Source: a bacterium (GTDB taxonomy: Bacteria > Actinomycetota > Thermoleophilia > Solirubrobacterales > Solirubrobacteraceae). From it: a stretch of DNA of 64,000 nucleotides. Positions 48,125 to 63,441 of this stretch are shown piece by piece. The notes under the pieces are model-generated. The model did no database searches and was not told the origin of the DNA. It worked only from the letters and a program-made list of their open reading frames with translations. The stretch lies in assembly GCA_021323635.1 (NCBI GenBank), contig JAJPKQ010000027.1, positions 9,563 through 73,562 on the forward strand, given 5' to 3'. Numbering within the stretch: the first letter of the stretch is position 1; each line of letters starts with the position of its first letter. A program made the translations under genes and the position numbers.

Positions 48125-49864
48125 ATGGGATTGAGGCTGCCGGCAGGTGCCCGGGAGGTCTTCTTCGGCGCTGCGCTCGGCCTGGGTGTTGGTGCGGCCT
48201 ATCTGGCACCGGACGCAGTTGCGAGCGGACATTAGCCGAGGCAAGTTGGAGCGCAGATGCTGACCGTCCGTGCAGGCGCCGTGGCGGCGCCGCTCCCCGA
48301 TGGGAAGATACGCATCGTGGGTGGTGAGACGAAAACCAAGAAAAGTCAAACGTCTACAAAGAGCGCCGAAGTCTACAACCGTTCCACCAAGAGCTTTGAA
48401 GCGCACAGCGCACAGGCGACAGCATCGCGCGATTACGCAGCCGGCGCCGTGCTGCCGAGCGGCGAGGCGCTGATCGTGGCCGGCTACGACACTGAATCCA
48501 AGCAGCAGCTGAAGAGCGCCGAAGCGTAAAACCGGTCAGCGCGCGCTTTGAAACGCTAGCGAGCGAAGCGCTGGCAGCAAGGGCGTATGCGACTGCAGCG
48601 GCGCCGGGGCGGCAAGGCTCTGAATGCCGACGGGCATGGCAGCAACGGCAAGGAGGAAGCGAATCTGGGGACGGCAGAGTTCTACAACCCGAGCACCGAT
48701 GCGTTTGAACACATCGCCGGCGAACCGCAGGTAGTAGGCGGCGAGAATCCCGCAGCGGCCTTGATCCGCGAAGAAAAGTGCTGATCGCAGGCGGCTGCGG
48801 TCAAAGCTATCGCAGTAGCGCTGATCGTTACAACGCCAAGACCGGCAGCTTGAGACGCCCGCCGGCATCGGCAAACTGACCGGGCGTCGGTATGGCGCCT
48901 GGTCGCTTGCCTCCGAAGCCGGCGAAGCGTTCATCGGCTCCGGCTACAGCTCTTCTTATCTGCGCAGCGTCGATTCAACTGACGGCAAGACGCTCACGCT
49001 CTCGAGGGCTGCACGGCGGCCGCTTGAAGAGCGCTGGGACGCGGTGGTGGCGCCGCTGTCAAAGAGCCCGTGGCTGATCGCAGGTGGTATCGCGCAGTAA
49101 ACGGAATTGTCGGCATTGCCGAGGAAATCGCGGCGGTCGTTCCAATGGCCTCGATGATCGGCGGCGGCTTCGGAGCGGTGGGCGTCGGCGAAAGCGCTGG
49201 TGCGCGCACGATCACCGTCGGCAACAGAGGGCAAGGTCAACTGAGGATCAGAGGCGTGCTGCTCAGTGGGGCCGATGCCGCTGACTTCAAGCTCGACGGA
49301 GGTCTCTGCGTCGGGCTCTCGGTTGCCGCGGGCGACAGCTGCGTGCTCACGGTCAGCTCCGCGCCTGCCACCACAGGAGCTGAGACCGCCACGCTGAGGC
49401 TTGAAGACAACGAGCGGTCGCGTGCCTCGATCACGCTGACCGGCAGCGGCTGTGCGCCGGGCTCTGCTGCGGGAGCGCTGCGCCTGCGGGGAGCAGCGGG
49501 GCCGACCGGCGCCGCGGGCCCAACGGGCGCCACCGGGCCTGCCGGGAAGGTCGGGCTCCTCACCTGCTCGGTTGGCGTCAAGAAGGTCGGGCGGCATGGG
49601 CACGTAGGCAAGCTGCGCGGGCGCCACTGCACGACAAAGACGGTGAGCGGCACCGCGAAGCTCACCCTCACCGGGCCGCGGGTCGCTCTGCGTCATGGCG
49701 GTCATCTCTACACGCACGGCGAGGAGATCGCGCTCGGGCACGGTCGCAGCGAGCTGGTGCTTGCGCGCGGCGTAGCTCTGCAGCCCGGTCGCTTCACCCT
49801 GGTCTCGCGCATCCGCCGCCACGGCCGGCTCGTGCGCAGACGCATGCAGATAGAGATCCGGTGG
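48125..49864 (+). pseudogene. Decayed secreted kelch-repeat + Ig-like (choice-of-anchor D) + collagen-like protein
   Basis: Signal-peptide-like start with in-frame TAG 48233; kelch units (LPDGKIRIVGG...SAEVYN, LPSGEALIVAG...SAEA*, KVLIAGG) broken by stops and frameshifts; ITVGNRGQGQL...CVLTV...LTGSG; GxT collagen triplets; original stop apparently lost. Confidence 0.8.
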
Positions 49865-50101
49865 GCGCCTCACCTCGGCCCAAGCGCCGGGGCCCTGAGC
49901 GGGCCCCGGCGCGCCCGCGGCAGCGCGCCTCCCAGCCCTTGCCCTCAGGGTCGACGCTGCTCTCCTGAGCGAAGCCTGCAGAAAAGATCAGGGCACGCTC
50001 CCCGATGCGAGCACGGATGCCATCGGCGAGGATCGGCCAAGTTGCAAGTAACCGATCCAAGGAGGGCTTCGTTGCACCCGATCTCCGGTCTTCTCCGTCA
50101 G

Positions 50102-50773
50102 ATGCGCCGACGCTTCACATTCGCCAACGTCGTGGCCGTGATCGCGCTGCTGTTCTCGATGAGTGGCGCTGCGATCGCCGCACGCCATTACCTGATCACC
50201 TCAACCAGGCAGATCAGCCCGAAGGTGCTGCGCGAGCTGCGCGGTCGCAACGGCCAGCGCGGAGCTACTGGTCAAAGCGGAGCAGCGGGCCCGCAGGGCG
50301 CCACAGGCTCTCAGGGAGCGGCCGGCCCGCAGGGCGTGACCGGGCCGCAGGGGCCTGCAGGGCCGGGGCTGATGGCTTACGCCTCCAATAAGGGAGGCTG
50401 TGCGCTCGAAAACGAACTAGGCAATTTCTGCTACCCGTCATCCCCTTCCTCGGGCTCGTTTACGGCAAGCGCCAACGGCACCTGTCTCGTGAGCGCGAGT
50501 GCCCAGATCGAAGAAGTCTCGGGTGTCACGTCCAACGGACCGTTCTTCCGGATCGCGATCAAGGAAGGCGCCACGGAGAAGAACGACGGGCTCTATGGCC
50601 ACTACTTCGAGGGCTCCGCCGGCGTGGAATCCATCGACCTTTCGCGCACGATGCAGGTCGCGGTCAGCGCGGGAAACACCTATGAGTTCGGTGCCTACTT
50701 CGGTGCTCCCACAGGACCCTGGCATGGCAAGTTCGCCGACTACCTGGTCACCTACACCTGCTTTGCGACATAG
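50102..50773 (+). CDS. Secreted collagen-like (Gly-X-Y) protein
   Basis: MRRRFTFANVVAVIALLFSMSGAAIAA leader, about 13 Gly-X-Y triplets, beta-rich C-terminal domain. Confidence 0.78.
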   Translation: MRRRFTFANVVAVIALLFSMSGAAIAARHYLITSTRQISPKVLRELRGRNGQRGATGQSGAAGPQGATGSQGAAGPQGVTGPQGPAGPGLMAYASNKGGCALENELGNFCYPSSPSSGSFTASANGTCLVSASAQIEEVSGVTSNGPFFRIAIKEGATEKNDGLYGHYFEGSAGVESIDLSRTMQVAVSAGNTYEFGAYFGAPTGPWHGKFADYLVTYTCFAT

Positions 50774-50839: not shown

Positions 50840-53815
50840 GTGCACACCACCGTCGGCGAGGAGCGACTATACGACCGCGAGGGCGAGCTCACAAGCATCG
50901 GCGAGGTCTTTGATCAGGCGCGCGGCGGGAGCGGCGGCGCGCTGCTCATAGAAGGCGCTCCCGGTCTGGGCAAGAGCGCCCTGCTGCGCGCCGCCCGGCG
51001 AGGTGCGGGCGGGCTGCAGGTCCTGCACGGTGCCGGCGAGGAGCTTGAGCGCGGCTTCGCGTTCGGGGTCGCGCGCGACCTTTTCGCGCGGGCACTGCAG
51101 GCGCTCGATCAGAGAGCGCGCAGGCGCGCGCTGACCGGACCGGCTGGGCACGCCTGCGCTGCACTCGGGATTGGGACGGGGACGCGCTCAGTTGAAGGCA
51201 GGGTTGCTGGCCGGGCAGCTCGCGGCGCGCCGGCGTCCGCCTGGCCCGGCGCCGCAAGCGGCGCCGAGGGCGGCGGCCGCATCCTGCACGGCCTCTACTG
51301 CCTGCTCGTGAACCTCGCCGTGCGGGCGCCGCTCGCGCTTGTCCTCGACGATCTGCACTGGGTCGATCACTCCAGCCTGCACCTGCTTGCCTACGTGATC
51401 CGGCGGCTGGAGGGCCTGCCGGTGGCGATCGTGATGGCAACCCGTCCGCCGCGGTCCGGGCGTTTCGATGGCCTGGTGCAGCGGCTTGCCGCCGAGCGAT
51501 CCGTGCTCGTGCACACGCTCACGCCGCTTGGCGCCGAGGCGGTCGGGAGCTATCTGGAAGACCGCCTGGGAGGCCCAGTCGATGTGACCTTTGCCGAGAC
51601 GGCCCGCAGCCTCAGCGGCGGCGTCCCCTACCTGCTCGAGCATCTGGCGCCGGAGATCGAGCGTCGCGGTCTCCAAACAACCGAAGCCGAGATCGAGAAG
51701 CTGCTCATGCTCTCGCCGCAATCGCTCAGCCGCGTGATCAACGCGCGCCTTGCGGAGCTGCCGACAACTGCAAGATCGCTGGCATCTGCCGCGGCGATTC
51801 TGGGCTCGCGAGCGCGCCTGGACAGCTGCATCGCGCTCGCTCACCTGAGCGCGCCGGATGCGTTGCAGGCAATCGACGAGCTTGCGGCGCTTGCGGTCGC
51901 GCACATCGAGGGCGAGAAGATCGCGATCTCGCACCCGCTGCTGCGGCGTGCGCTGCTCGCCGACCTTGCGCCAGGGACGGCTGTGCGCATGCATCTTGAA
52001 GCGGCTGAGATGCTCGATCGGGAAAACGCCGAGCCGGCGGTGGTCGCAGCGCATCTGCTTGCCGCGCCGGTCCCGCAGGGCTCCCCGGCGGCGCGCAGCT
52101 GGGCGCTCGATCTGCTGCAGCGAGAGGCCGAGCGAGCGCTGGCGCAGGGCGCTCCGGCAGATGCCGCGCGGCTGCTGCGGCGCGCGCTGATCGAGGCGCA
52201 GGAGGCAAGCCAGAGAGCGACGCTGCTCTTCAAGCTCGGGGCCGCCGAGATCAGGGCTGGCGAGGCGGATGCCATCCGCCATCTGCGCGTTGCGGCGCGC
52301 TCGCTCCTCGATCCGGGCAAGCGCGCCGGCGCCCACCTCGAGCTCGGGCTCGCGCTGATCGCGCGCGGCGATCCAAATGGGGCGGTCGCGGTGCTGGACC
52401 AGGCGCTCGTCCGACTGGGCGAGGGGCCCGCCGCTGATCGGCGGCTGCGCGTTCGCCTGGAGGCGGAGCTGCTTGCGGCGGCGCGCATAGGGGGCGCCAA
52501 ACACGCCGACATCCTGCAGCGACTGCAGCGACTGGGCATGCCGGAGGGTGAAGGTCGCGAGCAGCGGCTGCTGCTCGGTGTGGTCGCGTTCGAGGCGCTG
52601 ATCGCCGGAGGGATGCAGGTCGGCGCCCTGCCACTGCAATCGGCGGACGCGGTCATTGCGCTTGCGCGACGGGCGCTCAGCGGCGATGCGTCGATCGAGC
52701 ACTCCGCCCACTCGCCGCCCTTGAACCTCGCCGCCTACGCGGCGGCAGCAAGCGACGATCTTGCATCCGCGCTCTGCTTTGCCCGCCAGACGCTGCAGCG
52801 CGCAGAGAAGAGCGGCAGCGTGCTCGGCTTCGCGATCGCCTCCTGCTGGCGCTCGCACTTTGCGCTGCGCGCCGGTGACCTGCGCCTGGCCGAGGAGGAT
52901 GCGCGCGCCTGCCTGGCAAGCGAAGATGCTCATCATTGGCGTCTCGGCCGTCCGGCTGCGGCCGCAAACCTGATCGAAGCGCTGCTGGGCGAGGGCAGGG
53001 TGGCCGAGGCTGAGCAGCTGAGCCTGAAGTTTGTGCCCGGCGAGCTCGCCGGCGCCGGGCTGATCGGCCTTGCACTGCGCGTCGCGATCGGCCGTGTGCA
53101 CCTACTCTGCGGACGCTATCGCGAGGCGGTCGCCGTGCTGGAGGCCTGCGGCGCGGAGTTCGATGGTATCGGGGCCAGAAACCCCGCGCTCAGCCGCTGG
53201 CGATCGCTGTGCGCGCTTGCCCTGGCGGGGGAGGAGAAGCACGAGCAGGCACGCGCGCTGGCTGCAGAGGAGATGGGGCTCGCACGCGCGTTTGGCTCCG
53301 AGAGCGCTTTTGGCTGCGCGCTGGTCACCTCGGCGCTGCTATCGGACTCGCGCCGCGAGCGCCGGGCGCTGCTTGAGGAGGCGGAGGCGGTGCTTGGCGG
53401 TTGCGGTGCGCGCCTGGACTGGGCGCACGCGCTGCTTGAGCTGGGCGCGCTGCATCGCCGCGAGGGCAGGCGCAGCACAGGGGTAGAGCTGCTGCAGAAG
53501 GCGCTCGACCTCGCCGAGCGGCTGGGGGCGGGCATGCTCAGAGAGCGTGCGCGGGCGGAGCTTGCAAGTGCTGGGCTCAGACCCAGACGGGCGCTGCTGA
53601 GCGGGCCGGAGTCGCTGACGGGCGCAGAGCTTCGCGTGGCTGAGGCGGCGGCCGCCGGGATGACAAATCGGGAGATCGCGCAGCGCCTGTATCTGTCGGT
53701 GAAGACCGTTGAAACCCACCTGCGCCATGCCTACCAGAAGCTTGACATCAGCTCGCGCAAGCAGCTGCCCAGCGTGCTCACGGTCGAGCCGGCAGGGCAG
53801 CGCGCGCCGCGCTGA
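50840..53815 (+). CDS. LAL / MalT-like AAA-ATPase LuxR regulator
   Basis: Walker A GAPGLGKS, Walker B VLDDLHW, TPR-like middle, C-terminal LTGAELRVA...TNREIAQRLYLSVKTVETHL. Confidence 0.92.
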   Translation: MHTTVGEERLYDREGELTSIGEVFDQARGGSGGALLIEGAPGLGKSALLRAARRGAGGLQVLHGAGEELERGFAFGVARDLFARALQALDQRARRRALTGPAGHACAALGIGTGTRSVEGRVAGRAARGAPASAWPGAASGAEGGGRILHGLYCLLVNLAVRAPLALVLDDLHWVDHSSLHLLAYVIRRLEGLPVAIVMATRPPRSGRFDGLVQRLAAERSVLVHTLTPLGAEAVGSYLEDRLGGPVDVTFAETARSLSGGVPYLLEHLAPEIERRGLQTTEAEIEKLLMLSPQSLSRVINARLAELPTTARSLASAAAILGSRARLDSCIALAHLSAPDALQAIDELAALAVAHIEGEKIAISHPLLRRALLADLAPGTAVRMHLEAAEMLDRENAEPAVVAAHLLAAPVPQGSPAARSWALDLLQREAERALAQGAPADAARLLRRALIEAQEASQRATLLFKLGAAEIRAGEADAIRHLRVAARSLLDPGKRAGAHLELGLALIARGDPNGAVAVLDQALVRLGEGPAADRRLRVRLEAELLAAARIGGAKHADILQRLQRLGMPEGEGREQRLLLGVVAFEALIAGGMQVGALPLQSADAVIALARRALSGDASIEHSAHSPPLNLAAYAAAASDDLASALCFARQTLQRAEKSGSVLGFAIASCWRSHFALRAGDLRLAEEDARACLASEDAHHWRLGRPAAAANLIEALLGEGRVAEAEQLSLKFVPGELAGAGLIGLALRVAIGRVHLLCGRYREAVAVLEACGAEFDGIGARNPALSRWRSLCALALAGEEKHEQARALAAEEMGLARAFGSESAFGCALVTSALLSDSRRERRALLEEAEAVLGGCGARLDWAHALLELGALHRREGRRSTGVELLQKALDLAERLGAGMLRERARAELASAGLRPRRALLSGPESLTGAELRVAEAAAAGMTNREIAQRLYLSVKTVETHLRHAYQKLDISSRKQLPSVLTVEPAGQRAPR

Positions 53816-53971
53816 GGGGCGCTGGCGCAAGAGCGGTTGGACCTCTCTGCGCAGGCAGCCGCCGCCCGGCGTGCAAGCATCTGCAGGGACCATGCGACGC
53901 TTGCCTCAGGAGCGGGAAGAGGCTTCAGGGGCGTGCAGATCGCGAGTCCGTTGGCAGAGCGAGGAACTGGA

Positions 53972-54394
53972 GTGCAACAGGAGACAGCCGAGGAGAGCAG
54001 CGGCATCGGTCAGGCTGCGACCGCCCAGCTTGCCCCAACCACGCGCATAGACCGCATCCTTGCGCTCGTGCCGCGAGCGCTCTCAAGCCACCTCCACATC
54101 ATCTTCCTCGCCGGCCTGGGAGTGTTCCTGGTGCTGCTGCCGTTGGTCGGCGTGGGAGTCAGCGCAAAGGCGGAGCTGATCGGCGGCAACTACACCAACG
54201 TCACCTCAGATCTGGGCGCGTGCATAGCCGCTGGGCTCACCGTCCATCTGGTGCGCCGCGAGCACCGTCGCAGCGAGGAGCTCCATCGCATGCTCGAGCG
54301 CATGCACGCCCACCATCAGGAGGTCGCTCGGTCACTCGCCGCTACGCAGGCGCTGCTGGAGCGCGCCGAGCGGGCGGTGCGCAAGGACGCCTGA
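53972..54394 (+). CDS. Small membrane protein with coiled-coil tail, unknown function
   Basis: Two hydrophobic segments; GAGGA upstream of GTG 53972. Confidence 0.55.
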   Translation: MQQETAEESSGIGQAATAQLAPTTRIDRILALVPRALSSHLHIIFLAGLGVFLVLLPLVGVGVSAKAELIGGNYTNVTSDLGACIAAGLTVHLVRREHRRSEELHRMLERMHAHHQEVARSLAATQALLERAERAVRKDA

Positions 54395-54407
54395 GCGCAC
54401 GCACGCG

Positions 54408-55142
54408 ATGGCTGCTCGCGCGCGCCTGCTCCAAGCTGAAGGAGGACCAGTGCGGGCGCAGCAACGCGCGGCGCCCCCGTCGCGCGCGCGGGTGAAGCGC
54501 ATCCGCGCTGCCCTGCGCAGTGTCTATGGGACGCCGACGATGGCCCCGCACGGGGACCCGCTGGCCGAGCTGGTCCTGACCGTGCTCTCCCAGTCCACGA
54601 ATGACCGCAACCGTGACATCGCCTTTCTGCGTTTGCGCGAGCGCTTTGCGAGCTGGGAGCAGGTGCGCGATGCGCCGCTGCACTGCGTCGAGGAGGCGAT
54701 CCGCCCGGGCGGGATCTCAAAGGTCAAGTCCGCGCGCATCAAGGCGATCCTCGCTGCGATCAGCGAGCGTGCGCGCGATGCGAGCGAGCCGCTCTCGCTC
54801 GAGTGGATGCGGTCGGCGAGCGTGCCTGAGGGCCGCGCCTTCCTGACCTCCCTGCCGGGCATCGGGCGCAAGACCGCAGCATGTGTGCTGCTCTTCTCCT
54901 TCGGCCTGCGCGATGTCCCGGTCGACACTCACGTCGGGCGCGTCGGTCGCAGGCTGGGCCTGCTGCCTGACACAAACGTGTTCGATCGCCTGCATGAAGC
55001 GATGCTCGCGCTCACGCCGACCGGCGCCGAGCTCGAGCTGCATGTCAACCTGCTGCGACACGGGCGGCGCACCTGTCATGCGCGCGCACCTGACTGCGGC
55101 GGCTGCGTGCTGCGGCGGATGTGCCCCTCGCGATTGCCCTGA
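54408..55142 (+). CDS. nth: Endonuclease III-family (HhH-GPD) DNA glycosylase
   Basis: VLSQSTND, LPGIGRKTA, VDTHV, Fe-S motif CHARAPDCGGCVLRRMC. Confidence 0.88.
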   Translation: MAARARLLQAEGGPVRAQQRAAPPSRARVKRIRAALRSVYGTPTMAPHGDPLAELVLTVLSQSTNDRNRDIAFLRLRERFASWEQVRDAPLHCVEEAIRPGGISKVKSARIKAILAAISERARDASEPLSLEWMRSASVPEGRAFLTSLPGIGRKTAACVLLFSFGLRDVPVDTHVGRVGRRLGLLPDTNVFDRLHEAMLALTPTGAELELHVNLLRHGRRTCHARAPDCGGCVLRRMCPSRLP

Positions 55143-55183: not shown

Positions 55184-55891
55184 TCAGGCGGCGCGTGCCA
55201 GCGCCTGGGCGCGCGCGGCGCTGATCTGCTCGAGCGCCCCGTCGATCACCCGGCCGAGGAAGGTCTCGCGGTCGTTGACATGCGGCAGCGGCTGCTGCGG
55301 CACGGGGACCTCCAGAAAAGCGCAGAGCGGCTCCCAGCCTTCCTTCACCTCCCACACCAGCAGACGCTCAGGCGGCACCGTCGCCTTGACCGCCTCATTG
55401 TGCGCATTAAAGGCCCTGATCAGCTGCTCGGGTGTCTCGTGGCCACCCGCAAAGCTCCCCTGCTCGCCCCAGAACATGCGCTCGACAAGCGCGACGTAAC
55501 GCTTCCAGCGCGGATCGACCAAGGCGCGCGCGGATGAAAGCAGATGGATCAGCGACTCGCCATGGCCCATGCTCCAGATCGTCTCGCGGAAGCTTCGCTC
55601 CCAGGCTGCCGGGTCCCGAACCGAGAGCAGGACCTTGGCGTCGGGGTAGGCTGCCAGCAGGCGCTCCCAGAAGTACCCGCCGGGCCAGTCGACGGTCGCC
55701 TGGAAGCCCGCGAAGACCTCCGCCCAGACCTCCTCTCCGTCCAGCGCCCGCTCCCAGACCGCCACCTGGTCGAGGTCTGCAAGCACGTTGACCCAGTGGT
55801 AGCAGGGCTCCAGGCCGAGCATCTCAAGCGCCACCTTCTGCGTCAGGGTTCCAGTGCGCGGCATGCCCGCGCCGATCAGCTTGATTGACAA
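55184..55891 (-). CDS. Stand-alone sulfotransferase-family protein (Sulfotransfer_4-like)
   Basis: IGAGMPRTGT PAPS-loop-like motif, PCYHW, ATVDWP, KVLLSVRD, EGWEPLCAFL...PLPHVN; AAGGAGG SD before TTG 55891. Confidence 0.85.
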   Translation of the reverse strand: MSIKLIGAGMPRTGTLTQKVALEMLGLEPCYHWVNVLADLDQVAVWERALDGEEVWAEVFAGFQATVDWPGGYFWERLLAAYPDAKVLLSVRDPAAWERSFRETIWSMGHGESLIHLLSSARALVDPRWKRYVALVERMFWGEQGSFAGGHETPEQLIRAFNAHNEAVKATVPPERLLVWEVKEGWEPLCAFLEVPVPQQPLPHVNDRETFLGRVIDGALEQISAARAQALARAA

Positions 55892-56069
55892 CTGCGCCTC
55901 CTTCTTTGCACGGTCGGGGCTGCGATTGTGCCAGGGCAGCGCGAGCGCTGCGCTGTGATCGCCTGCTGCCCGCGGCATCGGCCTCAGGCTCGGGTATCGT
56001 CTCTGTCGGCAGACGCGGGCGATTGCAGCCCGCCGGCGCCGGCGCGGCGCCCGATCAGGAGAAAGGCAG

Positions 56070-57965
56070 ATGCAGGCGAGCAATCCACAAGAGCAGCTGC
56101 AGGTGCTTGGCGCCGGCTTCGGGCGGACGGGCACGCTGTCGCTGAAGGTCGCTCTCGAGGAGCTGGGTGTCGCTCCCTGCCTGCACTCGCTGCAGTCCCG
56201 CGCGCCGCTCAGCGCCAGCAAGCACTGGCAGCGCCTTGCCGCGGGCGAGCAGATCGACTGGCGCGAGGCGCTTGCGGGCTTTCGCTCCAGCGTCGACTGG
56301 CTCTGCGCCCGCTACTACGAGCAGATCCTTGAGGCCTTCCCGCAGGTCAAGGTCGTGCTCTCGGTGCGTGAGCCGCAGGCTTGGTATGAGAGCGCGAGCG
56401 CGAGCCTGCACGCGGCACGCTCGCTGCGGCGCTCCTCGCCCGATGGCAGGTCGCAGGGCGCGCTCCTCGAGGCGGTCGATCGTGCGATCTGGCAGGAGCT
56501 CTTCGACGGGCGCTTCTGCGAGCGCGAGCATGCCCTTGCCGTCTTTGACCGCCACAGCAGGGAGGTGATCGCGCGCGTGCCCGCCTCCCAGCTGCTCGTA
56601 TACGACGTGCGCGAAGGCTGGGCGCCGCTGTGCGCCTTCCTGGGCGTGCCCGAGCCGAGCACGCCCTTTCCGCACCTCAACGGCCGTGAGGTCTTCTGGA
56701 CACGGATCGGGCGGCAGGCGGCAGGCGGCGAGGCTGAGGGTCAAGCGCAGCTTGGAGCGCTGATCACGCGGCGCCCCCAGCAGCTGCCCGACGTCGCCGG
56801 CGCCCCGCCGCGCCCGCGCTACGCCCGGCGGATACGCGGCGAAGCTGAGCGCGCGCGCGCCCGCGTCGCCTCAGGCGGCGAGCCGGCCGCCGGTGCCGGC
56901 ATGCAGCGGCGACCCTCCGTTCGGATTGGCGCGCTGGCGTGCGTCGATGGGCCGCGGGAGCTGAGCCAGCAGGAGGTGCTCGACCTGCTGGGGCTGCGCG
57001 GCGAGGCCTTTGCGGAGGGGGTCTTCGCGCGCTGCGGCGTGCAGCGCAGATGCCTTGACCTCGACGCGGCGATGCTCGGGCGCAGCCTGCAGGGGCGCAG
57101 CGCGCGCGTGGAGGAGCTGCTGCTCGAGCGCTCCTGCGCGGCATTCGAGCTGCTTGGCGCAGACCCCTCCGAGGTCTCGACCGTGATCAGCGCCTCGCTT
57201 GTCTCGCTGGGCTGCCCTTCGCTTGCCCACCGTCTGATCGAGCGGCTGGGCATGGACCCGAGCACCGACAAGTACCACCTGACGGGCGTTGGCTGCGCGA
57301 GCGCTGTGCCGCTGGTGCGCCTCGGTGCCCAGGCGCTGGCAGGGGACCCGACGCGCAAGGTGCTTGTGGTGGCGGCGGAGTCGATGAGCGCCCTGCTCTG
57401 CCAAGCCTCCGGCGATGACCCGCGAGCCAAGACGATCGGCTCGGCGATCTTCGGCGATGGCTGCGCGGCGCTGCTGCTTGAGGCAGAGCGGCCCGGCGCG
57501 GGCGCGCTTCCCGAAAGCGGGCCCCGCCCGCTGCCTGAGGTGATCGCCAGCGCGGTGCACCAGGTTCCAAGCTCGCTCGATGCGGTTGCCATGGCCTGCG
57601 ACTCGCAGGACTCCTATCTGGGCCTGATCCGCGAGCTGCCGGACATCGCGGGCGCGCAGCTGCGCCCGCTGGTGGACTCCTTCCTGGCCCGCCATGCGCT
57701 GACCGCGCACATGGTCGACCATTGGCTGCTTCACCCGGGCGGGCGGCGCATCATCGAATGCGCGCAGTCCGCGCTCGGGCTCGATCGCGACGCGGTTGCG
57801 ATCAGCTACGAGGTGCTTGCAGATCGCGGCAACGTTGGCACCCCCTCGATCTTCTACGTCCTGGAGCGGACGCTGCGCAAGCGCGCCCCGCAGACCGGCC
57901 AGCACGGGCTGCTGGTCACGATCGGCCCGGGCGTGACGGTCGGGCTGATGCTCGTGCGCTTCTGA
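56070..57965 (+). CDS. Sulfotransferase-type III polyketide synthase fusion
   Basis: N-terminal GAGFGRTGT...SVDW...EGWAPLCAFL...PFPHLN; ~65-aa linker; chalcone-synthase fold with catalytic triad GVGCAS (Cys), LHPGG (His), GNVGT (Asn), plus FGDG and GPG. Good SD (AGGAGAAAGG). Confidence 0.85.
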   Translation: MQASNPQEQLQVLGAGFGRTGTLSLKVALEELGVAPCLHSLQSRAPLSASKHWQRLAAGEQIDWREALAGFRSSVDWLCARYYEQILEAFPQVKVVLSVREPQAWYESASASLHAARSLRRSSPDGRSQGALLEAVDRAIWQELFDGRFCEREHALAVFDRHSREVIARVPASQLLVYDVREGWAPLCAFLGVPEPSTPFPHLNGREVFWTRIGRQAAGGEAEGQAQLGALITRRPQQLPDVAGAPPRPRYARRIRGEAERARARVASGGEPAAGAGMQRRPSVRIGALACVDGPRELSQQEVLDLLGLRGEAFAEGVFARCGVQRRCLDLDAAMLGRSLQGRSARVEELLLERSCAAFELLGADPSEVSTVISASLVSLGCPSLAHRLIERLGMDPSTDKYHLTGVGCASAVPLVRLGAQALAGDPTRKVLVVAAESMSALLCQASGDDPRAKTIGSAIFGDGCAALLLEAERPGAGALPESGPRPLPEVIASAVHQVPSSLDAVAMACDSQDSYLGLIRELPDIAGAQLRPLVDSFLARHALTAHMVDHWLLHPGGRRIIECAQSALGLDRDAVAISYEVLADRGNVGTPSIFYVLERTLRKRAPQTGQHGLLVTIGPGVTVGLMLVRF

Positions 57966-57980
57966 GCGGGACGCGGCTGC

Positions 57981-59597
57981 TCAGAGCAGCGCCGCATGGG
58001 CGCCTGCGCCTGCCCGCCCGCGCCTGATCAACAGCCCCGCCGCCACCCCGAGGAAGCTGACGATCGCGGCCACCAGGAGCGCGGTGTGCAGGCCGCTCAT
58101 GAAGGCGGCATGGCTGCCGGTCGCAACCGCGTGGGCAAGCGCGGGGCTTGCGCCTTTGAGCGCTGGCGTCGCGCCCTGGCCGACAAGCTCCTTGGCGGCT
58201 GCCAGCTGCCTTGCGATCGAGCTTGGCACGCCGGCCGCGTGCAGGGAGCGCGCGAGCACCGCGCCCACCTGCGTCGCCAGCACAGAGCCGAGGATCGCGG
58301 TGCCGACGACGCCGCCCAGCTGGACCGCGGTGGTCTGGATGCCGCCCGCGACCCCCGCCTCGTCGACGGGCGCGTTGGCGACGATCGCATCGGTCGAGGC
58401 GACCACGACCAGCCCGATGCCGATCCCCAGCAGCACGAATGAGGGCCAGAGGGCGCTGTATGGCGAGGAGGGCTCAAGTCCGAGCAGCAGCAGCAGCGCG
58501 ACGCCGGTCAGCCCCAGCCCGAGCGCGATCGGTGCCCGCGGCCCGAGGCGCCCGGTAAGGAGCGCTCCAAGCGGGCTTGAGATCGCGAAGACGAGCGTCA
58601 GCGGCAGCGTCCGCACGCCCGCAGCCACCGGGTCAAGGCCATGCACGTTCTGCAGATAGAGCGAGACGAAGAACAGCACCCCATACATCGCAAAGAAGGT
58701 CATCATTACCGTTAGCGTTCCCAGCGCGACCGAGCGTTGGCGGATCACACGCAGCGGGATCAGCGGCGCGCGCACGCGCGACTCGACCAGGCCGAAGGCG
58801 ATCAGCAGCGCGATCCCGCCGCCGAGCAGGGCGTCGATCCTGGCAGCTCCCCAGCCCCAGCTCTGTCCCTCGACGAAAGCAAAGACCAGACAGAAGAGGC
58901 CACCCGCAAGCAGCGTGAGCCCGAGCCCGTCGAGGGCCTGGCGCAGACGCTCGCGGTTCTCCGCCAATGCGAAGAGGCCGAGCGCCAGCGTGATCGCCGC
59001 GATCGGGGCGTTGATGAAGAAGACCGACTGCCAGGAGACATGCTCCACGAGCAGCCCGCCGACGATCGGCCCGGAGGCGGTGGCAAGCGCGGAGGTGCCG
59101 CCCCAGATGCCGACCGCCTGGTTGAGGCGCTCAACGGGGAAGGTGGCGCGCAGGAGGGCGAGCGTGTTTGGCATCAGCAGCGCGCCGAAGAGCCCCTGCA
59201 GCGTGCGCATGGCGATCACCCCGTCGATCGTGCCGATCACGCCGACGCCCACGGAGCTTGCGGCAAAGCCGACGACGCCGATCAGGAAGATGCGCTTGCG
59301 GCCGTAGCGGTCACCGATCTTGCCGCCTGCGATCAGCAGCACCGCGAGCGCAAGCAGGTAGGCGTTGGTGACCCATTGCAGGTCGGCGAGGGAGGCGTGC
59401 AGCGAGCGGGCGATGTAAGGGTTGGCGATCGAGACGACAGTGCCGTCGATGCCGACCATCAGCACGCCGAGCGAGACCGTCGCAAGCGTCAGCCAGGGGT
59501 TGCCGCGCAGCGGCCTGCGGGAGCGGGCGGCGGCGTGTGACAGCGGCCTGCCCACCGTCACGGCGGCAGGGCTTCTGAGGGTTGCGTTCGGCCTCAC
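57981..59597 (-). CDS. MFS DHA2 (EmrB/QacA-type) efflux transporter
   Basis: MVGIDGTVVSIANP, WVTNAYLL, GKIGDRYGRKR, GPIVGG, WQSVFFINAP; 14-TM pattern. Confidence 0.92.
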   Translation of the reverse strand: MRPNATLRSPAAVTVGRPLSHAAARSRRPLRGNPWLTLATVSLGVLMVGIDGTVVSIANPYIARSLHASLADLQWVTNAYLLALAVLLIAGGKIGDRYGRKRIFLIGVVGFAASSVGVGVIGTIDGVIAMRTLQGLFGALLMPNTLALLRATFPVERLNQAVGIWGGTSALATASGPIVGGLLVEHVSWQSVFFINAPIAAITLALGLFALAENRERLRQALDGLGLTLLAGGLFCLVFAFVEGQSWGWGAARIDALLGGGIALLIAFGLVESRVRAPLIPLRVIRQRSVALGTLTVMMTFFAMYGVLFFVSLYLQNVHGLDPVAAGVRTLPLTLVFAISSPLGALLTGRLGPRAPIALGLGLTGVALLLLLGLEPSSPYSALWPSFVLLGIGIGLVVVASTDAIVANAPVDEAGVAGGIQTTAVQLGGVVGTAILGSVLATQVGAVLARSLHAAGVPSSIARQLAAAKELVGQGATPALKGASPALAHAVATGSHAAFMSGLHTALLVAAIVSFLGVAAGLLIRRGRAGAGAHAALL

Positions 59598-59603
59598 GGG
59601 CGG

Positions 59604-59633
59604 AGCATAGCATAAATGGCAGGAACTGCCATT
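59604..59633 (-). promoter_or_regulatory. MFS promoter overlapped by an inverted-repeat operator
   Basis: Perfect IR AATGGCAG-gaa-CTGCCATT (59615-59633); minus strand TGGCAG-16 nt-TATGCT-6 nt-GTG(59597); a further CTGCCA half-site at ~59643. Confidence 0.65.
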
Positions 59634-59842
59634 CGGCGTATACTGCCACAACTTGTGTGATCTGTTCCATGCCTGGGGTTGCTCCGCGCCATCCGCGCTC
59701 ACCCTCACCAGGAGTCCGGCGCTCGTGCGGCTGCCGGTGGGACTGAGATACTCCGCGCGGAAGTGCGGCGCGGCGGCACGTCATTTAGAGGCCGCACGCG
59801 CGCTGCAGCTAGGCATGCGAACGACGATCGAGAGGCCACAGC

Positions 59843-60799
59843 GTGACGGGCGCCGCTGAGCAGCCCGCCCTCTCGGTGCGCTCGCTCAGCAAGCGCTTCG
59901 GCGAACGCATGGCCTACGAGCAGATCTCCTTCGAGGTCGGCCGCGGGGAGGTCTTCGGTTTCCTGGGGCCAAATGGCGCCGGCAAGACCACGATGGTTCG
60001 CACCCTCGGCACCCTGATTGCGCCAAGCGCGGGTAGCGCGAGCGTCGCGGGAGTTCCGCTGAGCGAGGCAAACGGGGTCGAGATCCGCCGGCGGATCGCG
60101 ATCATGCCCGAGTCGCCCGGCCTCTACCAGCGGCTGAGCGTGCGCGACAACCTGGCCTGCTTTGCCGACCTCTACGAGGTCCCGGCACCGGCGCGGCGGA
60201 TCGCTGAGGTGCTCAGCATGGTCGGCCTTGCGGAGCGCGCGGCGGAGCTCTGCGGGGCGCTCTCCAAGGGCCTGCGCCAGCGTGTGGCGCTGGCGCGCGC
60301 GCTGCTCAGCGAGCCGCAGGTGCTCTTTCTCGACGAGCCCACCTCGGGGCTTGACCCGGCCGCCGCGCGCGATGTCCACGAGCTGATCGAGGGCATGCGC
60401 GAGCGCGGTGTGACCGTCTTCCTGACCACCCACCGCCTCGAGGAGGCTGAGCGACTTTGCGATCGGGTTGCGATCCTGAACACGACGCTGCGCTCGATCG
60501 GCCGCCCGGCGGAGCTGCGCGATCAGCTCTTCACGCGCGCGCTCCTAGTGCGCACCGCAAGCGCGCTTGCGGACCCCGCAGCGGTCTTTGCGTCACTGCC
60601 TGCGCTCGAGGGCTGGCATGCGCAGGGCGATAGCGCATATCTGCTTGAAGCTGCTGACATCAGCGCGCTGGCGCCGCACGCGGTGCGCGCGCTGGTTGCA
60701 GCCGGCGCTGACGTGCTCGCGGTCGAGGAGCGCCGCCACTCGCTCGAGGACGTCTACCTCGAGCTGGTCGGCGAGCGCCGGGAGGAGGCCGCGAGATGA
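59843..60799 (+). CDS. ABC-2-type exporter ATP-binding subunit
   Basis: GPNGAGKTT, LSKGLRQR, LDEPTSGLD, TTH. Confidence 0.93.
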   Translation: MTGAAEQPALSVRSLSKRFGERMAYEQISFEVGRGEVFGFLGPNGAGKTTMVRTLGTLIAPSAGSASVAGVPLSEANGVEIRRRIAIMPESPGLYQRLSVRDNLACFADLYEVPAPARRIAEVLSMVGLAERAAELCGALSKGLRQRVALARALLSEPQVLFLDEPTSGLDPAAARDVHELIEGMRERGVTVFLTTHRLEEAERLCDRVAILNTTLRSIGRPAELRDQLFTRALLVRTASALADPAAVFASLPALEGWHAQGDSAYLLEAADISALAPHAVRALVAAGADVLAVEERRHSLEDVYLELVGERREEAAR

Positions 60800-61518
60800 G
60801 GCTGAGCAGACGGCGCGTGCGGGGCGTCGTCGACAAGGAGCTGCGCGATCTGCGCCGCAACAGCAATGTCGTCTACACGATGCTCGTGCTGCCGCTGATC
60901 TTCCTGGTTCAGCCCGTTGTCGAGGTGCTGACGCTCTCGGCCCACTCCGCGGCGGTGCTGCGCCGCGAGCATACGCTGACCTACCTGCTTGCGATTCCGA
61001 CGCTTGTGCCGGCTGCGCTCGCTGCCTACGCGATCGTCGGGGAGCGCCTGCAGGGGACGCTCGAGCCGTTGCTCTCCACCCCTGTGCAGCGTCGCGAGCT
61101 GATCCTGGGCAAGGCACTCGCGGTCTTCCTGCCCTCGCTTGCGGTCGCCTATGTGGTGTTCGCGCTCTTTGTCATCATCGTGGAGCTCTTCTCGGCGGCG
61201 GGCGTGGCGGGAGCGCTGCTGCGCACCCCATATGTGCTCGCTCAGGTGATCTTCACGCCGCTGTTGGCAACGTGGTCGATCTGGCTGGGGATGGTGATCT
61301 CGGCGCGCTTTGCCGACCCGCGCGCGGCGACGCAGGTTGCGATCCTCGTCAGCCTGCCGACAGTGGCGATCACCTCGCTGATCGCCTTCAACGTGATCCC
61401 CGCCAACCTCCGCGTCGCGCTTGGATTCGGCGTCGGCCTGCTTGTGCTAAACCGCATCGGCTGGCGCGTGGCCACTGCGGTATTCGACCGCGAGCGCCTG
61501 ATCACGGGCAGCAGATGA
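60796..61518 (+). CDS. ABC-2-type exporter permease
   Basis: KELRDL, IVGERLQGTLEPLLSTP, LILGK; 6 TM helices; ATGA overlap. Confidence 0.9.
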   Translation: MRLSRRRVRGVVDKELRDLRRNSNVVYTMLVLPLIFLVQPVVEVLTLSAHSAAVLRREHTLTYLLAIPTLVPAALAAYAIVGERLQGTLEPLLSTPVQRRELILGKALAVFLPSLAVAYVVFALFVIIVELFSAAGVAGALLRTPYVLAQVIFTPLLATWSIWLGMVISARFADPRAATQVAILVSLPTVAITSLIAFNVIPANLRVALGFGVGLLVLNRIGWRVATAVFDRERLITGSR

Positions 61519-61588
61519 GCGGTCACCCCTGCGTGCTCGGCCTGCGAGCAGAGCGTGAGCGGCGCACTCGCTGCTGGCATAATCTGTC

Positions 61589-62290
61589 GTGATGGACGTA
61601 GCTTCGGGTGCAGGGAGGGATGCCCGCAGCAGCCGCGCCAGGCGCCCGCAGCGCCTGCGCGGGCCGGCTGCGGAGCTCGCTGAGGCGACGCTCACGGAGC
61701 GGCGCATGGCACGGACTCGGCGGGAGCTTGCGAAGGCGGCCAGTCGCCTGTTTGCGAGCAAGGGCTACGAGGAGACGACGATCGAGGAGATCGCAGCCGC
61801 CGCGGAGGTCTCGCCACGAACCTTCTACCGCTACTTCGCGCACAAGGAGGGCGTTGTGGTGGCGCTTGCGCAGTTTGGCTTCGACGATGTGATCGGAGAG
61901 CTGCGGATGCGACCGGCGCAGGAGCCGCTGCAGCACGCCCTGGCGGCGGCGTTGATCGCGCCGATCTATGCGCAGGCAAGCAGTGAGGAGGAGGTGCGCG
62001 CTTTCTTTCTGATGCTCGCGCGCACGCCCGCGCTGCGCGCGCGCTGGCGCGAGGAGGTCTACACGCGCCAGGTTGCCTTCGCGCAGGTGCTGGCGGAGCG
62101 CGTGCCGGCGCTGGCAGCGGAGCCCCTCAGAGCAAGGGTTGCCGCCGGCGCCCTGCTGGCTGCGATCTCGGCGGCCTTCGAGTCCTGGGCCGAAGGCGCG
62201 GTGCGCGGCAGCCTGCGGGCGACGCTGGAGCGGGCGATCGCGCTGCTCACCGGGCCGCTGCTGCCTGCGTACGCTGAGGCTGCGCGCTGA
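61589..62290 (+). CDS. TetR/AcrR-family regulator
   Basis: LFASKGYEETTIEEIAAAAEVSPRTFYRYFAHKE; CATAAT 5 nt upstream of GTG. Confidence 0.93.
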   Translation: MMDVASGAGRDARSSRARRPQRLRGPAAELAEATLTERRMARTRRELAKAASRLFASKGYEETTIEEIAAAAEVSPRTFYRYFAHKEGVVVALAQFGFDDVIGELRMRPAQEPLQHALAAALIAPIYAQASSEEEVRAFFLMLARTPALRARWREEVYTRQVAFAQVLAERVPALAAEPLRARVAAGALLAAISAAFESWAEGAVRGSLRATLERAIALLTGPLLPAYAEAAR

Positions 62291-62309: not shown

Positions 62310-63006
62310 CTGGATTCGGGAGCTAGTCGGTATGGATGCCGAGTGGGGCTGGCCCTCGGCGTTCGCATTTCTCGCGGGTCAGCCTCGGCGGTGTAAGGGC
62401 GACATCGGCCAGAGCCGCATACGAAGGAGAACCAGCCCCGTGCCTGACGTCAGCTCCAACCGGCCCACCGACGTTCGTCTGTGGGTCGCCCTCGACGTGC
62501 ACAAGCTCTCGATCCTCGCCGCAACGCTGCCGCCGGTGGGCGGTGAGCCGGAGGTCTGCCAGATCGAGACCACCCGCGTGGCGATCCGCCGCTTCATCGA
62601 CCGCCTGGGCGGTCCGGAGGGCCTCGCCGTCTGCTGCGAGGCGGGCCCCGGCGGCTTTGACCTCCTCCGCGTCCGTGCCGAGCTGCAGGTGGCCTGCGAC
62701 GTGATCGCGCCCTCGCCGATCGCGGTCCGCGCCGGCGACCGCATCAGGTCCGACCGGCGTGAAGCCAAGAAGCTCGTGCGCCTCTACCACGGCGGCCAGC
62801 CCTCGTTCGTCGCGCCCCCGACCCCGGAGACCGAGGGCCTCTGGGACCCGGTGCGCTGCCGCGATGACCTGCGCTGCGCAAGGACGGCGGCCAGGCACCG
62901 AGTCGCCAAGCGGCTCTTGCGCCACGGACGTGTCTACCGGGAGGGCAAGAGCCAGTGGACCAATATGCACTGAGCATGGGTGGCCCGCCAGCGACTCGCC
63001 GACCCC
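62310..63006 (+). mobile_element. IS110-family element remnant: 5' non-coding end plus truncated DEDD recombinase (GTG 62440, in-frame TGA 62971)
   Basis: WVALDVHK...CCEAGPGGF...IAPS...GDRIRSDRREA...RHRVAK.LLRHG...W* AWVARQ; the C-terminal Tnp domain is missing. Left boundary approximate. Confidence 0.8.
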
Positions 63007-63038
63007 GGCCACCCGGCGCACGCGGAGACCCGCGCGTC

Positions 63039-63230
63039 CGGGGGCGCCTGCAGGCGCTGTTCGTGCGCGAGCTCGAAGCTCTGGGGCACCCCGCTCCCGA
63101 GCACGCCGCCGACCAGCTCCTGCTGCTGATCGACGGAGTGCTGCTGGAGGCGCTCACGCGTCCGGACACCCACCCGGCGCGAGGCGCCAAGGAGCTCGCC
63201 GAACACGTGCTGGGCGCGGCCAAGGGCCGG
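63039..63230 (+). pseudogene. Remnant of a TetR-family ligand-binding (C-terminal) domain
   Basis: RLQALFVRELEALGHPAPEHAADQLLLLIDGVLLEA...AKELAEHVL; no HTH and no credible start; fused to the IS110 breakpoint. Confidence 0.55.
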
Positions 63231-63441
63231 GGGCGTGTGCGGTCGCGGCGGACAGCGCAGCTTGCATCGGCGCACCCGGCCCCACAGAGCGAGGCGCACG
63301 CCGTTCGCGCGTTTGCGGATGCGCAGCCCCCGCGCGTCGCCCTCGGCTGACTCCGGGTTGTTGTAGCCGGCGGCGCTCACGACCGTGGAAGGAAACGGGC
63401 TGCCCTCGTTGGCCCGCCCGAAGTCGCCCGCAATGCTCGCC

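Follow-up and report, generated by a model that had tools for sequence, protein, structure and literature searches.

A conserved two-gene cassette of a sulfotransferase and a sulfotransferase-type III polyketide synthase fusion in Solirubrobacterales, and its possible role in sulfate relay

To our knowledge, the caprazamycin/liposidomycin relay, which resides inside antibiotic gene clusters, is the only case in which the natural sulfate donor of a bacterial arylsulfotransferase (ASST) has been established. In Streptomyces sp. MK730-62F2, caprazamycin is sulfated in two steps by Cpz6, Cpz8, and Cpz4, and liposidomycin has a counterpart of this system with LipE (Tang et al., 2013, as described in PMC6731281 and PMC4924298). 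Cpz8 is a sulfotransferase (ST) that depends on 3′-phosphoadenosine 5′-phosphosulfate (PAPS), sulfating triketide pyrones made by a type III polyketide synthase (PKS); the ASST-type enzyme Cpz4 then passes the sulfate to caprazamycin (PMC6731281; PMC4924298). Streptomyces davaonensis likewise has a type III PKS and an ST in its adp cluster (AdpPKS, AdpST, and AdpP1-3), the final products of which are sulfated adipostatins, namely mono- and di-sulfated alkylresorcinols (PMC12135136). Both type III PKS-dependent two-step sulfation and clusters of a type III PKS with an ST are already known. According to a recent review, it is still poorly understood what bacterial PAPS-independent arylsulfotransferases do physiologically and which donors and acceptors they use in nature (PMC13426309). 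Here, we analyzed a stretch of 64,000 nucleotides (the window) on contig C26 of a Solirubrobacteraceae genome (JAJPKQ010000027.1 of GCA_021323635.1; the assembly has 46 contigs, a size of 2.64 Mb, and a completeness of 97.5%). The window contains a gene for an ST fused to a type III PKS and, divergently transcribed from it, a gene for a second, stand-alone ST (ST2). On the other side of the fusion gene lie genes for a major facilitator superfamily (MFS) pump of the DHA2 family, an ABC-2 type exporter, and a TetR-family regulator (Table 1). With a probability of about 0.58, these genes represent two independent units, one being a conserved cassette of ST2 and the ST-PKS fusion with a role in sulfate relay, and the other a separate efflux module.

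Conservation of the genes was examined at 72 distinct loci having an ortholog of the PKS. Species-representative genomes supplied some of these loci, and the others came from metagenome contigs and from 40 relatives of the source genome (24 in the same genus). Each locus was searched with the window proteins; for the efflux genes, TetR, and the ASST genes, a position beside the PKS means one within 10 kb. The closest homologs of the fusion come from metagenome-assembled genomes of Solirubrobacteraceae and Solirubrobacterales. A preliminary description of the window, made from the sequence alone, had expected the second ST to be conserved together with the fusion. Indeed, 53 of the 72 loci have an ST2 ortholog (56-90% identical) immediately upstream of the PKS and divergent from it, and this arrangement is found in every locus with an N-terminal ST fusion like that of the window (11/11). 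All these 11 fusion loci have different flanks, among them Clp/trigger factor, cobalamin and pyrimidine genes, and FtsH. In the closest relative, locus L089, the fusion is 71% and ST2 is 90% identical to the window protein. Within the genus, both PKS and ST2 are found in 16 of the 24 genomes, only PKS in two, only ST2 in two, and neither in four (Fisher p = 0.018); the PKS is intact in 16 genomes, and two more hold a partial or decayed copy. In one genome of 57% completeness (G011, C12:412262-414397), stop codons or splits are found in the PKS as well as in the ST2 ortholog next to it, and the pair appears to decay together. The partnership of ST and PKS is fixed in at least four independent layouts, which are the divergent one, an N-terminal fusion of lineage B, an N-terminal fusion of the ST2 type, and an ST located downstream of the PKS. 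Thus, a shared ST-PKS pathway is strongly supported.

The efflux genes and the regulator gave the opposite result. The preliminary description had counted the DHA2 pump, the ABC-2 exporter, and TetR as members of the cluster and had suggested dedicated export and feedback regulation by them. None of these genes is located beside the PKS in the comparison set (0/72), and in L089 the fusion gene is followed by genes for HlyIII and a fatty-acid desaturase where the window has the pumps and TetR, so that the first of these proposals fails the synteny test and the second is not supported. At the 72 PKS loci, no ortholog of the window DHA2 pump was found, the only matches being 32-35% identical and falling on a different pump. 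A homolog of the ABC-2 permease at E <= 1e-10 was found in none of the 40 relatives. The conserved cluster is two genes, ST2 and the fusion (55184-57965), and not six.

Both STs are homologs of the enzyme that makes the donor in caprazamycin sulfation. They match PF17784 with 215 bits (ST2) and 177 bits (fused domain) vs a cut-off of 22.8, and the best solved relative of both is PDB 9KF1, with 43.9% identity to the fused domain (E = 6.6e-55) and 44.6% to ST2 (E = 6.6e-50). In the stretches read in frame, the synthetic Cpz8 gene (PMC6731281, supplement 4) agrees with the 9KF1 sequence at 96-100%, and therefore 9KF1 is Cpz8. Fragments read from the synthetic Cpz8 and LipE genes also match PF17784. 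When 101 ST domains were aligned, 42 positions were conserved at 93% or more. Among these near-invariant positions, all of which are kept by both window STs (two changes in the fused domain are conservative), are the RTGT loop and the 3′-phosphate-binding residues R92/R100 and S100/S108. The preliminary description regarded the two STs as paralogs of one family. They do belong to one family and are 42% identical, but in the tree of the 101 domains they fall into two anciently separated lineages and are not recent duplicates. ST2 orthologs group in one clade (58 rows, support 100/100) with a long stem, and the fused domains of the window type group in another (11 rows, support 100/93), the sister of which consists of stand-alone Solirubrobacterales STs and of the STs that Thermoleophilaceae and Conexibacter encode immediately downstream of the PKS. 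Since the tree separates both with full support, the origin of the fused ST as a recent duplicate of ST2 is ruled out. A second, independent fusion, in which an ST2-type domain is N-terminal to the PKS, occurs in L020, L030, and L112 (G030), and these loci have no separate ST2 gene. As for the role of the two STs, they may perform regiospecific double sulfation, the fused domain may serve channeling with ST2 as its back-up, or ST2 may have a distinct substrate. The source genome also has a third PF17784 ST (C33:170381-171058, 44% identical to ST2), with no PKS or ASST adjoining; its relatives adjoin a stand-alone adenosine 5′-phosphosulfate (APS) kinase gene in G003 and G023, and are located about 2 kb from an ASST gene in G008 and G014.

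The PKS domain of the fusion is the single type III PKS match in the whole genome. Chal_sti_synt_C, Chal_sti_synt_N, and FAE1_CUT1_RppA all exceed their cut-offs in this domain, while the DpgA model is far below its own. The catalytic triad Cys409/His555/Asn588 is invariant in an alignment of 30 fusion homologs. The closest solved structures, which give a hint to the product class, are the alkylpyrone synthases Pks11 and Pks18 of M. tuberculosis, and chalcone synthases are also among the PDB relatives. The linker between the ST and PKS domains differs in length among the homologs of 555-636 aa, and more than 100 protein clusters that carry both domains keep it in frame.

Neither a PAPS-synthesis gene nor an ASST gene had been noticed in the window, and it had been supposed that PAPS comes from elsewhere. 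This was borne out by a whole-genome search, which places all such genes on other contigs. The only APS kinase of the genome is encoded on C33 (79091-79546), and CysD/CysH-type genes are on C3; a Sat-type sulfurylase was not found in the genome. Six ASST genes are distributed on contigs C10, C15, C33, and C46. On C33, the gene for an ortholog of ASST-A (79797-81674), 58% identical to the ASST-A linked to the pair in relatives, directly follows the APS kinase gene, and is itself followed by a frame encoding a pump fused to ASST-B (82089-85628; L088:10090-13629, + strand). Immediately upstream, a gene for a PiT/PHO4-family transporter (- strand) stands side by side with those for APS kinase and ASST-A at C33:77633-81674 (L088:5634-9675). 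This transporter is possibly a CysP-like sulfate permease, and the segment looks like a small island for sulfate uptake, activation, and transfer, apart from the ST/PKS cassette.

ASST genes (PF14269/PF05935) are located within 10 kb of the PKS gene in 21 of the 72 loci, and 17 of these 21 loci carry an ASST-A ortholog together with the C33-type pump. Two layouts were observed. In one, PKS(+) is divergent from ST2(-), ASST-A(-), pump-ASST-B(-), and ASST-C(-), and in four loci of this layout an APS kinase gene is found about 1.1 kb downstream of the PKS. The other consists of PKS(+), ASST-A(+), pump-ASST-B(+), and ASST-C(+), and lacks a nearby ST. In every locus that holds both parts (15/15), one uninterrupted frame encodes the pump and ASST-B; in its product of about 1025-1179 aa, a DHA2-type MFS pump is followed by an additional transmembrane helix and an ASST domain. 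By hydropathy, ASST-A is anchored at its N-terminus by a hydrophobic segment (residues 6-24), and in pump-ASST-B the extra helix comes after the DHA2 core and is preceded by Arg residues; both ASSTs are therefore predicted to face outward. The sole PDB matches of ASST-A are 9KF4 and 9KF6 (E = 1e-75), the codes of which run on from that of the Cpz8 entry. Within the genus, the closest orthologs of the stand-alone APS kinase gene adjoin the PKS (G017), an ST paralog (G003 and G023), or ASST-A (source genome). Each genome of the genus has 4-11 ASST paralogs. In the source genome, the four other paralogs (C10, C15, and C46) have only housekeeping neighbors, such as genes for the shikimate pathway, CtaG, a CLC channel, Lhr helicase, and exonuclease VII, and no hint of an acceptor was found around them.

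From these gene families, the intact catalytic residues, the homology to Cpz8 and to the ASST of 9KF4/9KF6, and the counts of conservation and linkage, we infer the product chemistry, the direction of sulfate flow, the export of the product, and its acceptor as follows. The type III PKS domain would build a small hydroxylated aromatic polyketide, either a pyrone or a resorcinol, which the fused Cpz8-like ST domain and/or ST2 would O-sulfate with PAPS supplied via the APS kinase on C33. The cassette should in this way make an O-sulfated small aromatic polyketide from PAPS. The sulfated polyketide would then most likely act as an aryl-sulfate donor, comparable to that in the two-step sulfation of caprazamycin, and after export it would be used by the signal-anchored ASST-A and the DHA2 pump-ASST fusion. 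We give slightly better than even chances to this last proposal, that the exported sulfated polyketide is the sulfate donor for outward-facing ASSTs as in Cpz6/8/4. It is favored by the homology to Cpz8, by the recurrence of ASSTs, the pump-ASST fusion, and APS kinase in clusters with the pair, and by the fact that the source genome has all these partners. A PKS product working as a sulfate shuttle had been raised in the preliminary description as well; it gains from the Cpz8 homology, the 21 loci with ASSTs, and the partners on C33, and loses from the fact that no ASST is found at the fusion loci.

A fuller version of this scheme is tentative, and its chances seem to fall somewhat short of even. 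In this version, a trans-membrane sulfuryl relay without a tie to antibiotics would be widespread in Solirubrobacterales, with the cassette as its cytoplasmic half. PAPS cannot leave the cell, so the sulfate would be loaded onto a small phenol or pyrone made by the type III PKS. This carrier would be exported by the DHA2 pump, which is fused through a 15th helix to an outward-facing ASST, and this ASST and the 4-11 secreted paralogs would pass the sulfate to acceptors on the cell surface or in the environment. The ST-PKS fusion would then be a channeled donor factory, and ST2 would be specialized in charging the carrier a second time, for instance at another hydroxyl, so that it bears two sulfates that can be transferred.

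Several observations weigh against a relay, and most of them also bear on an alternative in which the polyketide, sulfated once or possibly twice, would itself be the end product. Each ST would then serve one hydroxyl, the neighboring DHA2 pump and/or ABC-2 exporter would secrete the product, and TetR would control them; we consider this unlikely, but by no means negligible. The adp cluster demonstrates that a set of type III PKS and ST can make mono- and di-sulfated alkylresorcinols as end products (PMC12135136). Neither an ASST nor an APS kinase is linked to the pair in the source genome, or within 10 kb of it in the 11 other fusion loci. Three genomes from another family of the order (G026, G031, and G039) carry PKS and ST but no ASST, and the sulfated polyketide in these organisms can therefore be nothing but an end product. 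Six genomes of the genus, two of which are more than 90% complete, have ASST-A without PKS, and thus ASSTs do not strictly need the PKS. The PKS domain matches even its best solved relatives, Pks11 and Pks18, at only E = 1e-29, and its resemblance to Cpz6 is hypothetical. The window pump is TcmA-like, a type known for export of aromatic polyketides, and it is a plausible exporter of such compounds that may have been recruited recently. A strain about 95% identical, seen in a mine-drainage metagenome, keeps the junction between the fusion and the pump, and in L090 an MFS gene converges near the fusion. However, this L090 gene is not matched by the window pump at the score threshold used, and the exporters and TetR are missing beside the PKS throughout the 72 loci, with HlyIII and the desaturase taking the place of the pumps in L089. 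The ABC-2 permease is absent from the 40 relatives although 16 of the 24 genus genomes hold an intact PKS. The convergent-then-divergent arrangement of the efflux genes also gives no operon link to the cassette, and AdpST alone does both sulfations in the adp system, so that di-sulfation needs no second ST.

The second alternative concerns the division of work between the two STs. They may act in series in an all-cytoplasmic relay, where the fused domain charges the nascent polyketide from PAPS and ST2 acts on another acceptor or donor, for instance by transferring sulfate onward from the charged polyketide within the cytoplasm. Such a role would suit the long, fully supported stem of the ST2 clade and the replacements that it accumulated. 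Twelve alignment columns separate the ST2 and fused clades; Cpz8 agrees with the fused clade at eight of them and with ST2 at two, and the rest of the PF17784 family sides with Cpz8 at these diagnostic columns. Therefore, ST2 is the derived lineage. In the phosphosulfate loop G-x-G-x-x-R-T-G-T, the ST2 clade has Pro for the Gly just before Arg, and the other replacements are Y to E beside the 3′-phosphate motif, R to G, and R/K to P, all at residues conserved in Cpz8 and in almost every other PF17784 member. These changes hint at altered handling of the substrate or donor. However, among the 53 loci where ST2 lies beside the PKS, it is the sole ST there in all but the 11 fusion loci, as it is in the complete clusters with an APS kinase gene next door, and it must therefore be able to manage the PAPS-dependent step alone. 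In addition, none of the 42 near-invariant residues is lost in ST2, the RTGT loop and the R/S residues of the 3′-phosphate motif being among them, and STs working in series thus appear improbable. Most improbable of all is scavenging, in which ASSTs would load environmental aryl sulfate onto a secreted polyketide phenol and the carrier would be re-imported for the STs running in reverse in the service of sulfur metabolism (aryl sulfate + PAP to PAPS, PAP being 3′-phosphoadenosine 5′-phosphate): ASSTs are freely reversible phenol-to-phenol transferases with natural substrates unknown (PMC13426309), the organisms come from soil and mine sites, and 4-11 ASST paralogs are found per genus genome, but the APS kinase and the putative PiT-type sulfate permease in or beside the clusters argue that PAPS is made and not harvested, the fused pump is a DHA2-type exporter, and the direction is without precedent.

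Gene calls and Pfam/profile matches confirmed the six genes at the coordinates, and in the families, given by the preliminary description. The divergent gap of 178 bp between ST2 and the fusion is exact as well, as counted from a TTG start of ST2 at 55891 to the start of the fusion. This start and the Shine-Dalgarno sequence AAGGAGG, 5 nt before it, are both kept in the two closest relatives, L089 and L091, and on this ground the length of the gap is fixed. The fusion starts with ATG and has AGGAG ahead of it. The gap presumably carries both of the predicted promoters, and a block, GGGTATCGTCTCTG, in it is common to the window and L089. An 11-nt palindrome in the gap (55932-55955) was considered as a conserved operator and rejected, as this segment is absent from L089 and L091.

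The convergence of the DHA2 pump gene on the fusion gene was also confirmed, with the stop of the pump 15 nt past that of the fusion. The true start of the pump gene is probably near 59530, but it is uncertain because the Pfam match begins only at residue 79 of the maximal open reading frame (ORF). A promoter/terminator scan was uninformative, its one weak promoter-like site lying in the 5′ extension of this ORF. The pump exceeds the cut-off of TIGR00711 (247.6 bits vs 230.2), and its best specific model is TcmA-like (421 bits, below the cut-off of that model); its hydropathy reveals 12 clear hydrophobic segments and is compatible with 14 helices. Divergent from the pump gene lies the ABC ATPase gene, which overlaps the permease gene by 4 bp, so that the permease is, judging from this overlap, translationally coupled to the ATPase. 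The ATPase matches DrrA best (TIGR01188, 244.6 bits, below the cut-off of 312), and the match of TetR to the MftR model is below its cut-off. With the TetR gene placed after the ABC genes, the region 57981-62290 may be taken as a self-contained, strain-specific efflux module under the control of TetR in a variable stretch of the genome. TetR most likely controls the adjacent efflux genes; an operator search of the intergenic region between the MFS and ABC genes found no inverted repeat. Beyond TetR, there are ORFs without a family match (62323-63021), a C-terminal TetR fragment lacking the N-terminal HTH (62955-63350), and a gene for a PIN-domain VapC-like toxin (about 63997-64392). The TetR fragment and the toxin gene are the reason to regard the stretch as variable and accessory. 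No RNA run was found to hold the stretch; it is found only in DNA metagenomes from soil, mine, mine drainage, and sediment.

Table 1. Features of the ST/PKS region and the adjoining efflux region, with positions in the window.
Feature	Position	Strand	Basis
ST2, stand-alone PF17784 Sulfotransfer_4 / Cpz8-family sulfotransferase, 235 aa	55184-55891	-	Pfam E 1.4e-63
Divergent intergenic region, 178 bp, with both ribosome-binding sites	55892-56069	.	Sequence
ST-type III PKS fusion, 631 aa	56070-57965	+	PF17784 residues 11-207; type III PKS domains residues ~345-630
Fusion, N-terminal ST domain, residues 1-~215, canonical Cpz8-like lineage	56070-56714	+	PF17784 E 7e-52
Fusion, low-complexity Ala/Gly/Arg-rich linker, residues ~216-279	56715-56906	+	Translation
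Fusion, type III PKS domain, residues ~280-631	56907-57965	+	Chal_sti_synt_C, FAE1_CUT1_RppA, Chal_sti_synt_N
DHA2-family TcmA-like MFS efflux pump, maximal ORF	57981-59708	-	MFS_1 E 8.6e-58; TIGR00711
ABC transporter ATPase, DrrA-like	59843-60799	+	ABC_tran E 3.1e-30; DrrA1-3_C
ABC-2 type permease, six hydrophobic segments	60796-61518	+	ABC2_membrane_2 E 4.3e-14; hydropathy
TetR-family regulator, MftR-type C-terminal domain	61589-62290	+	TetR_N E 2.2e-15; TetR_C_14 E 2e-7

Other neighbors of the pair were considered as cluster members and rejected. In about 20 loci (e.g., L002, L003, and L006), the pair is located between cofD and cofC/cofE of F420 biosynthesis, with a gene for an fbiC-like radical SAM protein nearby. 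Since cofD, cofC, and cofE are contiguous on C33 of the source genome without the pair, this link reflects synteny of a subclade and not function. Upstream of ST2, the window has genes for a LAL-type LuxR protein of 991 aa (AAA_16 and GerE), a 185-aa ORF without a family match, and an HhH-GPD/EndoIII-like protein (50840-55142), which are syntenic only with L089. Further upstream (49070-50773, +) is an ORF of 567 aa with a collagen triple-helix repeat and a weak match to the ASH domain.

The searchable literature contained neither a natural ST-PKS fusion accompanied by a second conserved ST lineage, nor a Cpz-type system detached from antibiotic clusters, nor a genus-wide recurrent link of PKS/ST to ASSTs that are secreted or fused to a pump. 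The donor-making half of the system, a Cpz8-type ST with a type III PKS, is a conserved and mobile cassette of two genes in a whole genus of Actinomycetota that are uncultured and come from soil and mines. It is sometimes a single fused protein, and it is repeatedly clustered with secreted ASSTs, the pump-ASST fusion, and APS kinase. The boundaries of the cluster are hereby corrected, the relevant set being the two genes and their partners on C33 instead of the neighboring pumps and TetR. This small and defined set of genes may be used for asking where exported ASSTs obtain their sulfate, and if the relay is true, it would name the natural donor of "donor-less" bacterial ASSTs.

Among known systems, the efflux region is comparable to the TcmA/DrrAB-type, TetR-regulated efflux modules of actinomycete polyketide clusters. 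The window pump passes the DHA2 cut-off and is closest to TcmA, the ATPase is closest to DrrA, and a TetR gene follows. Unlike in those modules, the matches to TcmA, DrrA, and MftR are below the curated cut-offs, and in no relative is the window module beside the PKS. The cassette resembles the adp system, likened here by description, in that a type III PKS gene is clustered with that of a PAPS-dependent ST, and in some relatives of the window locus with an APS kinase gene too; the predicted product, a sulfated aromatic polyketide, is also of the kind made by adp. However, the adp genes form one operon of five, which includes a full PAPS cassette and in which a single ST does both sulfations, whereas the window has two STs of different lineages, one of them fused, no adjoining PAPS genes, and linkage to ASSTs in its relatives. 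The closest comparison is with Cpz6/8/4. The pair in the window differs from it in lacking a liponucleoside or other antibiotic cluster, its flanks being housekeeping or variable; in the fusion of an ST to the PKS and the addition of a second, derived ST lineage; and in the location of the ASSTs, none of which is beside the window pair and all of which are on other contigs of the source genome. The ASSTs of the source genus are also signal-anchored or fused to a DHA2 pump and occur as 4-11 paralogs. The likeness rests on the STs and ASSTs, as the best solved relatives of the window PKS are Pks11 and Pks18. Both systems combine a type III PKS and a PF17784 ST, the window STs being about 44% identical to Cpz8, and in both there is an ASST-type third component, which is beside the PKS in 21 of the 72 related loci and is present as ASST-A elsewhere in the source genome.

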